Sequence record: PQ571289
From: Escherichia phage EF1-1
Strand: one strand, 5' to 3'
Length of the DNA: 64,000 nucleotides
Below the pieces are notes generated by a model, which was given only the letters and a program-made list of their open reading frames with translations, was not told the DNA's origin and made no database searches. Positions 20,872 through 21,661 of the stretch are shown here, in pieces. The stretch's first letter is position 1. Each line of letters begins with the position of its first letter. A program made the translations under genes and the position numbers.

Positions 20872-21083
20872 TAGTCTTCCTCCAGATCAATTTCATTGTA
20901 ACAATGTACGCAGAAACCATCATTGTGCATATGTTGTTCATAAGACATATCTTTACCACAAGACCAACAACGGATATCCCCATCGTCCCATTCACGTTCT
21001 TCTTCACCTTCAAATTCATCTGGTAGGTAAGGCATACCAAAACAATCTAAATCGTAACTCATATCTTCTCCTATCGAGTCCAC
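20871..21083 (-). CDS. small zinc-ribbon protein
   Basis: CWSCGK...CVHCYNE Cys pairs. Confidence 0.4.
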   Translation of the reverse strand: MDSIGEDMSYDLDCFGMPYLPDEFEGEEEREWDDGDIRCWSCGKDMSYEQHMHNDGFCVHCYNEIDLEED

Positions 21084-21661
21084 TCCTTACGTTGTTCAAT
21101 ATGTTCAAGCATATCATTATACAATGTTTTAAGATGTGGAACAACTCTTTGATCTTCTGTTTCAAAAAACTTTGTAAGCTGTTCTGCTTTAGCTTTCAAC
21201 CAACAAAGATGTGCCTCAAGTTCAGTATCAAAACGTCCGAGCGTTACAACACGACCGTCACGTTGAATATGAGCCTTATACTTTTTACGATCTTTTTCAT
21301 AATTGAAGCCTACCATAGTTCCATGAGATCTTTTACTTACTCTATAAGCTAAAAATTTGTTAAGATTACCTGTTACTAAAAGGCAGGTGTCGGGAGAGTA
21401 AACTCTCCCTCCTATGATATCTTTATCGAGTTCTAAGTTTTCCCAGTTATCCCAAGTTTTCAACCAAGTATAGAAGTTGGAAAACAGTTTCCATTCTTCA
21501 CAGACCGTCACTCCATGATAACAAGGATCACGTTCTTGTTGGCAAGGGGAGTAACATCTCCCCAACATAGCCATCCATTTCATATAAGCAGGATGAGTTC
21601 CATGTTTATCCTTCACCACAATATGTCCATCGAAAACACCAACACCATATACTGTTCGCAT
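21071..21661 (-). CDS. free-standing homing endonuclease (HNH-like N-terminus with AP2 DNA-binding domain)
   Basis: N-terminal YMKWMAMLGRCY...YHGVTVCEEWKLFSNF typical of phage HNH endonucleases; AP2-like YRVSKRSHGTMVGFNYEKDRKKYKAHIQRDGRVVTLGRFDTELEAHLCW. Confidence 0.6.
   Translation of the reverse strand: MRTVYGVGVFDGHIVVKDKHGTHPAYMKWMAMLGRCYSPCQQERDPCYHGVTVCEEWKLFSNFYTWLKTWDNWENLELDKDIIGGRVYSPDTCLLVTGNLNKFLAYRVSKRSHGTMVGFNYEKDRKKYKAHIQRDGRVVTLGRFDTELEAHLCWLKAKAEQLTKFFETEDQRVVPHLKTLYNDMLEHIEQRKEWTR

Follow-up and report, generated by a model that had tools for sequence, protein, structure and literature searches.

A probable free-standing homing endonuclease gene with an AP2 domain and a histidine-less HNH-like domain beside the DNA polymerase gene of Escherichia phage EF1-1

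What is the small open reading frame (ORF) that follows the intein-containing DNA polymerase gene of Escherichia phage EF1-1, and is it mobile? The stretch of DNA considered here, referred to as the window, is 64,000 nucleotides (nt) of sequence record PQ571289 and derives from a phAPEC8-like Escherichia coli myovirus of the Stephanstirmvirinae, Phapecoctavirus. The original prediction, made from the sequence letters, described the ORF as a free-standing HNH-AP2 homing endonuclease gene. The ORF is indeed there, 196 residues long and directly downstream of the polymerase gene, on the minus strand (which had been left unstated), and its translation includes the two strings that had been quoted, YMKWMAMLGRCY (residues 26–37) and VCEEWKLFSNF (residues 53–63). 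The two genes are as follows.

21071–21661, minus strand: complete ORF, a free-standing IPA-HNH/AP2 homing-endonuclease-type gene of 196 residues with an ATG start and a TAG stop, from the ORF listing.
21688–25020, minus strand: family-A DNA polymerase gene encoding a 1110-residue precursor, the essential gene adjoining the ORF (Pfam DNA_pol_A, PHROG 17).

The ORF, hereafter the homing endonuclease gene (HEG), is a mobile element at one fixed site, present in some relatives and not in others. Probably, it is a free-standing homing endonuclease gene of the IPA-HNH class that has settled in the gap between the polymerase gene and its downstream neighbor.

A 2-kb query around the HEG matches 127 phage records, the best of which is Escherichia phage iGC_PHA_EC001 at 97.2% identity. 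Only nine of the 127 cover the whole query, and most of the others are without about 577 bp that correspond to the ORF; they align as two pieces that together make up about 1424 bp and therefore do not carry it. The presence/absence polymorphism that the original prediction expected among related phages is thus found. Four HEG-less relatives, phAPEC8, ECO340P1, dw-ec and ABPW7, were aligned with the window. Over 14 kb at 98–99% identity, the only insertions or deletions (indels) common to all four are the HEG and a 735-nt block in the polymerase gene. Three of the four also have short indels at 17620–18480, in the tail-gene region, that are unrelated to the HEG. The alignments delimit the mobile segment.

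21074–21687, no strand assigned: segment present here and absent in the four HEG-less relatives; toward the polymerase gene, its edge is defined only to within about 20 nt.

The empty site in the HEG-less relatives is a 37-nt spacer with the hairpin AAGGGGCTTCTGCCCCTT. This hairpin occurs in all four HEG-less loci, in none of four HEG-carrying loci and nowhere in the window, and a 66-nt stretch containing it has a predicted folding energy of −19 kcal/mol (z = −3).

DNA of the HEG was found in 40 phage records, which represent a minority of Phapecoctavirus and most of Justusliebigvirus, and in all loci inspected it comes directly after the polymerase gene. When the window is compared with Justusliebigvirus phages (VEcB, ECGD1) or with phiWec179, the body of the ORF is 83–96% identical, the polymerase gene is 63–82% identical, and the nucleotidyltransferase gene is at most 65% identical or cannot be aligned at all. 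Such an island of similarity across genera implies horizontal spread. Phage phi92 (NC_023693) has no intact HEG, only a deletion remnant after its polymerase gene (locus L014, 2010–2150, minus strand), in which the leader, Shine-Dalgarno sequence and ATG (42 of 43 nt identical to VEcB) run directly into roughly the final 61 nt of the ORF (48 of 61 identical), with about 520 nt deleted. By its sequence this is a degenerate homing-gene scar, which the record does not annotate as such. The polymorphism, the cross-genus island and the phi92 remnant together bear out the free-standing mobile gene that had been proposed.

Within the HEG, the first 70 nt or so (21591–21661, minus strand, residues 1–23) are only 52–56% identical among alleles that are otherwise 83–96% identical, and there are at least three N-terminal variants (MRTVYGVGVFDGHIVV..., MLTVYGEGINDLEGES... 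and MVYGHGIFDGDSTV...). The N-terminus is thus mosaic, which points to recombination inside the gene.

The differences at the junction with the polymerase gene are also unevenly placed.

21688–21727, minus strand: last 13 polymerase codons, in which synonymous differences from the HEG-less relatives are clustered; candidate zone of the target or of co-conversion.

Three to four of all right-flank differences from the HEG-less relatives lie within the first 40 nt (21691–21727; binomial P 0.005–0.009), and these silent changes leave the polymerase protein unchanged. They give a modest hint that a target or conversion tract lies in the last 13 codons. With this cluster on one side and the hairpin spacer at the empty site on the other, the suggestion that the target is found in the polymerase region of relatives without the gene is a plausible one.

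Presence and absence at a fixed site might also be explained by an ordinary accessory gene (a “moron”) that is gained and lost at an intergenic hotspot through general or illegitimate recombination, with no homing of its own. Phage intergenic regions beside terminator hairpins often gain and lose genes, the HEG has no long co-conversion tract, and its G+C content (38.1%) does not differ from that of the genome (39.4%). However, the gene or its relatives sit in the same place after a homologous polymerase gene even in a phage as distant as Vibrio phage ICP1, and between the parts of split polymerase genes in the Herelleviridae. Moreover, the HEG is more alike across genera than its flanks are, it has the domain architecture of homing endonucleases, and the silent changes cluster in the polymerase codons at the junction. 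Simple accessory-gene traffic is therefore improbable as an explanation.

The HEG is closely fitted into its surroundings. Only 26 nt separate it from the polymerase stop codon, TGA (21688–21690), and within this gap lies its ribosome-binding site.

21666–21672, minus strand: Shine-Dalgarno sequence AAAGGAG, 4 nt before the ATG of the HEG, read directly from the sequence.

At the other end, the TAG stop is part of GATAGGAG, where the small gene that follows has its ribosome-binding site. A scan for promoters and terminators found no site specific to the HEG ORF, with counts at the level of shuffled sequence, so that the HEG is most simply regarded as part of the polymerase operon.

Several lines of evidence argue that the ORF is not a chance one. 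It matches PHROG 953 (“HNH endonuclease”) at E = 2e-74; its protein has 33 close homologues in a collection of 5.8 billion proteins, and a profile built from them retrieves 48,863 cluster representatives at E ≤ 1e-3 and 5,082 at E ≤ 1e-30. The ratio of nonsynonymous to synonymous substitution rates (dN/dS) among intact copies from five phages is 0.12–0.33. The ORF is intact and under purifying selection. A hidden Markov model (HMM) scan of all six frames found no second copy of the family in the window. A 96%-identical gene in iGC_PHA_EC001 is already annotated “HNH endonuclease” in GenBank. Pfam and NCBIfam scans of the ORF itself yielded neither an HNH nor an AP2 match. The sole Pfam match was DIX (E = 0.075), dismissed as noise, and a phmmer search of the PDB returned a chromodomain-like protein alone, judged to be a chance match.

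The class to which the HEG belongs is indicated by a gene of phage ICP1. Over residues 2–133 (140 columns), the HEG protein is 38% identical to ICP1 gp59 (pairwise BLASTP E = 7e-23; tblastn E = 1e-15). In ICP1 (locus L009, 555–4133), gp59 stands immediately after an rV5-type DNA polymerase gene, just as the HEG does here, and the ICP1 polymerase is 33% identical to that of the window over its C-terminal part. From the shared position, the association of this endonuclease family with the rV5-type polymerase family may be an old one. According to Barth, Nguyen and Seed (2023; PMC10448857), IPA-HNH proteins, of which ICP1 gp59, gp115/116 and gp209 are the type members, have an N-terminal domain that is HNH-like but diverges too far to be matched by Pfam HNH_3, and a C-terminal AP2 domain, and 29% of their genes adjoin DNA polymerase genes. 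The class was defined by computation, and catalytic residues and activity are not discussed in that paper (PMC10448857); no later paper on the class was found in the literature. Because of its homology to gp59, the HEG is placed in this class, and it shares the other traits as well: no HNH_3 match, a C-terminal AP2 domain and a free-standing position beside an essential gene. Judged by homology, it is an ordinary member of a known, computationally defined class. The homology search that had been proposed as a check thus supports an IPA-HNH/AP2 family but not the canonical HNH family.

The C-terminal part of the protein consists of two features.

21164–21322, minus strand: AP2/ERF-type DNA-binding domain, residues 114–166, three beta strands and a helix.
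21074–21163, minus strand: C-terminal helical tail, residues 167–196, with a model helix at 174–189; about 61 nt of the tail persist in the phi92 remnant.

The family profile matches the AP2 domains of WRI1 (E = 3e-5) and ERF1 in the PDB. Pfam AP2 (PF00847) recognizes nine of 24 close relatives and 28 of 98 distant ones, with a best E of 4.6e-9, while the protein from the window itself falls below Pfam reporting. The predicted structure, with a predicted local distance difference test score (pLDDT) of 90.7, shows three strands and a helix at residues 119–166. The AP2-type domain named in the original prediction is upheld by the profile matches, by the Pfam hits in relatives and by the predicted fold. 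Amino-acid differences among alleles concentrate in the AP2 strands. In AtERF1, these strands form the DNA-reading surface. AP2 domains reportedly favor GC-rich sites (PMC10448857).

The N-terminal domain (N-domain) poses the more difficult question of whether it is a nuclease and, if so, of what kind.

21338–21661, minus strand: N-domain, residues 1–108, a putative nuclease module, HNH-like without the histidine, that includes a Y-x2-W-x2-M-x2-R-C helix.
21350–21436, minus strand: predicted beta-beta-alpha core, residues 76–104, with D79-K80-D81, Y88-S89-P90, C93 and N101.

It was compared among 98 diverse relatives that are 30–44% identical. Invariant in all of them are Y48, W57, D79, K80, D81, Y88, N101 and G118, and the cysteines C36, C54 and C93 are kept in 83, 84 and 97 of the 98, respectively. 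A model of residues 1–110 (pLDDT 92.5) has a strand at 77–79, a loop, a second strand at 94–96 and a helix at 98–105, which make up a beta-beta-alpha unit. Residues L76–N101 can be laid on L71–N96 of I-HmuI without a gap over 26 residues, placing D79 on D74, K80 on His75 and N101 on N96, with V96-T97 on V91-T92. At the position that matches the catalytic histidine, at the end of the first beta strand, there is thus an invariant lysine, K80. A second resemblance is to the restriction enzyme PacI, which has no general-base histidine; the part of that residue is played by an omega-loop tyrosine, and the metal ion is bound by one Asp and one Asn (PMC5714182, PMC4081073). The order of motifs is D92-R93 ... 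Y100 ... N113 in PacI and D79-K80 ... Y88 ... N101 in the HEG protein, with a spacing of 13 from Tyr to Asn in both. Y88, present in 98 of 98 relatives, is located between the strands at 77–79 and 94–96, and Y100 is invariant in the PacI family. The I-HmuI residues were confirmed against 1U3E and the PacI sequence against 3LDY; both likenesses are motif-level arguments only. From alignment and model, the N-domain is a histidine-less, HNH-like domain of the “IPA-HNH” class with a predicted beta-beta-alpha core, not a canonical HNH domain.

More distant relatives of the N-domain also keep the D-K-D, Y, C and N residues. In the Herelleviridae, some are flanked by the two annotated halves of a split DNA polymerase gene.

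Locus L010, 1144–2115: Lactobacillus phage Semele.
Locus L011, 1177–1863: Bacillus phage Nemo.
Locus L012, 1210–1854: Staphylococcus phage PBSA08.

The ORFs of Nemo and PBSA08 have an I-HmuI_NUMOD-like DNA-binding domain and no recognized nuclease domain, and that of Semele has no Pfam match. The HEG ORF matches phrog_2081 at E = 4e-26 over residues 2–110, with “LDKD...YS...C...N” in common. PHROG 2081 comprises ORFs encoded in group I introns of Bastillevirinae polymerase genes, without an InterPro nuclease domain (PMC11878797). No group I intron was found in the three Herelleviridae loci with Rfam at E ≤ 0.01, so the evidence for introns there comes from the annotation of split polymerase genes and from PMC11878797. 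As the sole candidate nuclease in these split-polymerase ORFs, the N-domain appears to occupy the nuclease slot of classical homing-endonuclease architectures, and, from the domain matches, it is combined with different DNA-binding modules (AP2 or NUMOD-like).

The HEG is translated from a ribosome-binding site of its own, probably as part of the polymerase operon. In the mechanism proposed, the AP2 domain would bind a specific site in HEG-less phage genomes; most likely this site is the polymerase gene's 3' end, the GC-rich hairpin spacer in whose place the HEG now stands, or both. The beta-beta-alpha N-domain would nick or cut nearby, with D79 and N101 as ligands of a single metal ion. K80, the omega-loop tyrosine Y88, or both might stand in for the histidine base, as in PacI. 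During co-infection, the break would be repaired from the HEG-carrying genome, and the HEG would be copied in with short flanking tracts. The carrier would itself be immune, since its spacer is gone and its last polymerase codons have silent changes.

Several findings weigh against a homing nuclease of this kind. The HNH models of Pfam (PF01844, PF13392 and relatives) and NCBIfam match neither the ORF nor any of the 24 close or 98 diverse relatives, and no histidine is conserved in the N-domain across the 98, the HNH general-base position included. D79 and N101 are putative metal-ligand positions, assigned by motif alignment. A Foldseek search of the PDB with the N-domain model returned nothing significant; six of the ten weak matches are HNH nucleases, and PacI, one of them, is the best structural neighbor, at a non-significant level. 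When the N-domain profile was aligned by hhalign with the PacI sequence and with the PacI family profile, a narrow one of nine members that are 59–99% identical, the probability was <1%. PacI is also missing from the results of an N-domain HMM search of the PDB, as is I-HmuI. No published nuclease assay for any member of the HEG family was found in the literature. The polymerase gene shows no long co-conversion gradient beyond its last 13 codons, identity falling right at the junction. Finally, the HEG is seemingly near-fixed in Justusliebigvirus, and a useful, domesticated gene would look alike.

The same HMM search matched deoxycytidine kinase (E of about 0.02), which was rejected as spurious because the invariant DKD and Y fail to align.

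The “HNH” motif of the original prediction consequently survives in part: the domain is HNH-like in its predicted beta-beta-alpha unit but, with no curated model matching it and no conserved histidine, it is not a canonical HNH. It is thus very improbable that the HEG is an I-HmuI-type HNH-AP2 homing endonuclease with a normal histidine base, even though PHROG and GenBank use the name “HNH endonuclease” and the spacing from D79 to N101 equals that from D74 to N96 in I-HmuI. The alignment, with no conserved histidine, contradicts it. Among the family models, only those of PHROG, whose names are propagated annotations, give the ORF the HNH name.

A more serious alternative is that the HEG descends from a homing endonuclease but is nuclease-dead and retains only sequence-specific DNA binding, acting as a regulator of the replication operon in place of the terminator hairpin, or as a repressor of host or competitor genes. 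The catalytic histidine is missing throughout the family, no curated nuclease model matches it, and purifying selection and near-fixation in Justusliebigvirus fit a useful gene. There are precedents as well. His-Me fingers that have lost catalysis and kept DNA binding are known, such as Smad MH1 (PMC5714182), and phage AP2 proteins without a nuclease domain, the CasPRs, are DNA-binding repressors (bioRxiv 10.64898/2026.02.23.707548). However, what is invariant in very distant members is not a generic DNA-binding surface but the putative metal-ligand positions D79 and N101 together with the Lys and the Tyr, and PacI is an active variant without the histidine (PMC4081073). The N-domain is also the only candidate nuclease in the ORFs between split polymerase-gene parts, and the presence/absence pattern, the cross-genus island and the remnant in phi92 are what a homing element leaves behind. 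The nuclease-dead alternative is accordingly considered unlikely, if less so than the accessory-gene explanation, and the homing endonuclease gene is preferred.

The question extends beyond this one gene. The superfamily with the signature “L-D-K-D ... Y-S-P ... C ... N” takes in the IPA-HNH genes, PHROGs 953, 374 and 2081 and the Herelleviridae polymerase-splitting ORFs, at least 48,863 cluster representatives in all. Tentatively, it may constitute an active, histidine-less branch of the His-Me fingers that uses Lys80, Tyr88 or both, a possibility to which somewhat less than even weight is given. If so, a chemistry documented so far for PacI and its tiny family would be among the commonest active sites of phage homing endonucleases, and thousands of “HNH endonuclease” annotations would be mislabeled as to mechanism. 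To go by its sequences, a very large phage “HNH endonuclease” family has no catalytic histidine and an active-site make-up that looks PacI-like.

The HEG is not the only selfish element here, as the other indel common to the four HEG-less relatives is an intein.

22540–23274, minus strand: intein of 245 residues in the polymerase, C583 to N827, followed by C828; a clean 735-nt indel.

The exteins are identical to the intein-less phAPEC8 polymerase over 583 of 583 and 283 of 283 residues. Its motifs include the N-terminal Cys583, TADH and LEGFLIADGY, and it ends in TGN827 with Cys828 at the +1 position. The intein DNA is 92–100% identical in 33 related phage records and 77% identical in a Klebsiella phage. 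It is annotated in PaulScherrer and SD2, and some records read “intein-containing DNA polymerase precursor”. None of the curated intein models scored above threshold (Intein_splicing 16.6 bits against a cut-off of 35.8, E = 0.007; LAGLIDADG_3 E = 0.15), and the PDB matches are inteins at non-significant E values of 0.07–0.9.

The penultimate histidine is missing from the intein (Thr-Gly-Asn, then Cys), and there is one weak LAGLIDADG-like motif, LEGFLIADGY, in its 245 residues. No inteins have been reported in coliphages according to PMC11162368, in contrast to the 34 phage records in which the polymerase intein is present.

Among about 127 records, about 37 have the HEG ORF, 33 have the intein and 10 have both (odds ratio 1.0), and all four combinations occur. 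The HEG and the intein are two independent selfish elements at one polymerase gene; the pairing that had been predicted is borne out, with the two elements assorting freely.

The genes on either side may be noted briefly. The small gene directly downstream of the HEG (20871–21062, minus strand) belongs to PHROG 25582, of unknown function, and its product has CxxC pairs, CWSCGK ... CVHCYN, suggestive of a zinc ribbon. Upstream of the polymerase gene, the ORF at 25020–25814 (minus strand) ends on the polymerase start codon with a one-base overlap at 25020. Its homologue in phAPEC8 is annotated as a DNA N6-adenine methyltransferase, and the gene is missing at the matching position in phiWec179.

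Elsewhere in the window, a tail-fiber-like ORF of 674 residues (13752–15776, plus strand) has several collagen-like Gly-X-Y runs, such as GDKGDVGPTGPQGAPG and GPQGPQGEAGKDGLDGTDGDEG. It is followed by an 890-residue tail protein (15818–18490, plus strand) whose C-terminal part repeats “...F.GC.SLT.IP..LF...”. The 3' end of this gene (17620–18480), probably a host-range cassette, is a hotspot of divergence that differs by numerous small indels from phAPEC8, ECO340P1 and ABPW7, though not from dw-ec. A perfect, bidirectional terminator-like hairpin, AAAGGAGCC-ATTT-GGCTCCTTT, at 18492–18515 separates the convergent blocks of tail genes and replication genes.

Together, the HEG and the intein explain local mosaicism among phAPEC8-like and phi92-like phages that are therapeutic candidates, and the polymerase/HEG region is a poor choice for phylogeny. 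The empty site of phAPEC8 and the carrier allele differ by the HEG alone and offer a clean and cheap pair of substrates.

How, then, does the HEG compare with systems already known? The CasPRs (CapR-AP2 repressors; bioRxiv 10.64898/2026.02.23.707548) likewise use a phage AP2 domain for sequence-specific DNA binding, but they join it to a CapR zinc finger, have no nuclease-like module, and act as transcriptional silencers at acr loci of Bacillota prophages. PacI (3LDY/3M7K, His-Me finger group 20) resembles the HEG protein in the replaced histidine and in the invariant tyrosine between two strands. It differs in being a restriction enzyme that works as a homodimer, has two Cys4 zinc sites in each subunit and lacks an AP2 domain, whereas the HEG family has about three conserved cysteines; profile homology between PacI and the N-domain is unsupported, with only weak phrog_3377 matches common to both. 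I-HmuI (1U3E), the HNH nicking endonuclease from the SPO1 polymerase intron, can be aligned without gaps to the predicted beta-beta-alpha core and targets a phage DNA polymerase gene, and distant relatives of the N-domain bear NUMOD modules of the I-HmuI type.

The Seg and Mob proteins of T4-like phages belong to the GIY-YIG and canonical HNH nuclease families, and activity has been shown for several of them. The HEG family, in contrast, is known from sequences and has a different kind of putative nuclease. HNH_3 group proteins keep the catalytic histidine. Like the HEG, Seg and Mob genes are intergenic, stand beside essential genes, are polymorphic among relatives and are expected to cut the allele that lacks them, close to their own site, and so to spread by repair (PMC10448857). 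The HNH-AP2 proteins of Magnani, Sjolander and Hake (2004), from Trichodesmium, Tetrahymena, RB49 and Felix O1, are placed in His-Me finger group 2 (HNH_3) by PMC5714182 and, according to PMC5714182 and PMC10448857, also combine a nuclease module with an AP2 domain in a selfish gene; in the HEG, the histidine is replaced and HNH_3 finds no match, which sets it apart from those proteins as they are described there.

The closest counterparts are found within the family itself. The phrog_2081 ORFs have the same N-domain and DNA polymerase genes as targets, but they lie between the parts of split polymerase genes and have I-HmuI_NUMOD-like domains in place of AP2. ICP1 gp59 comes from a different phage lineage and has an N-terminal extension of about 60 extra residues and a diverged C-terminus; like the HEG, however, it has an N-domain invisible to HNH_3 and a C-terminal AP2 domain, and is a free-standing gene that follows a homologous polymerase gene.

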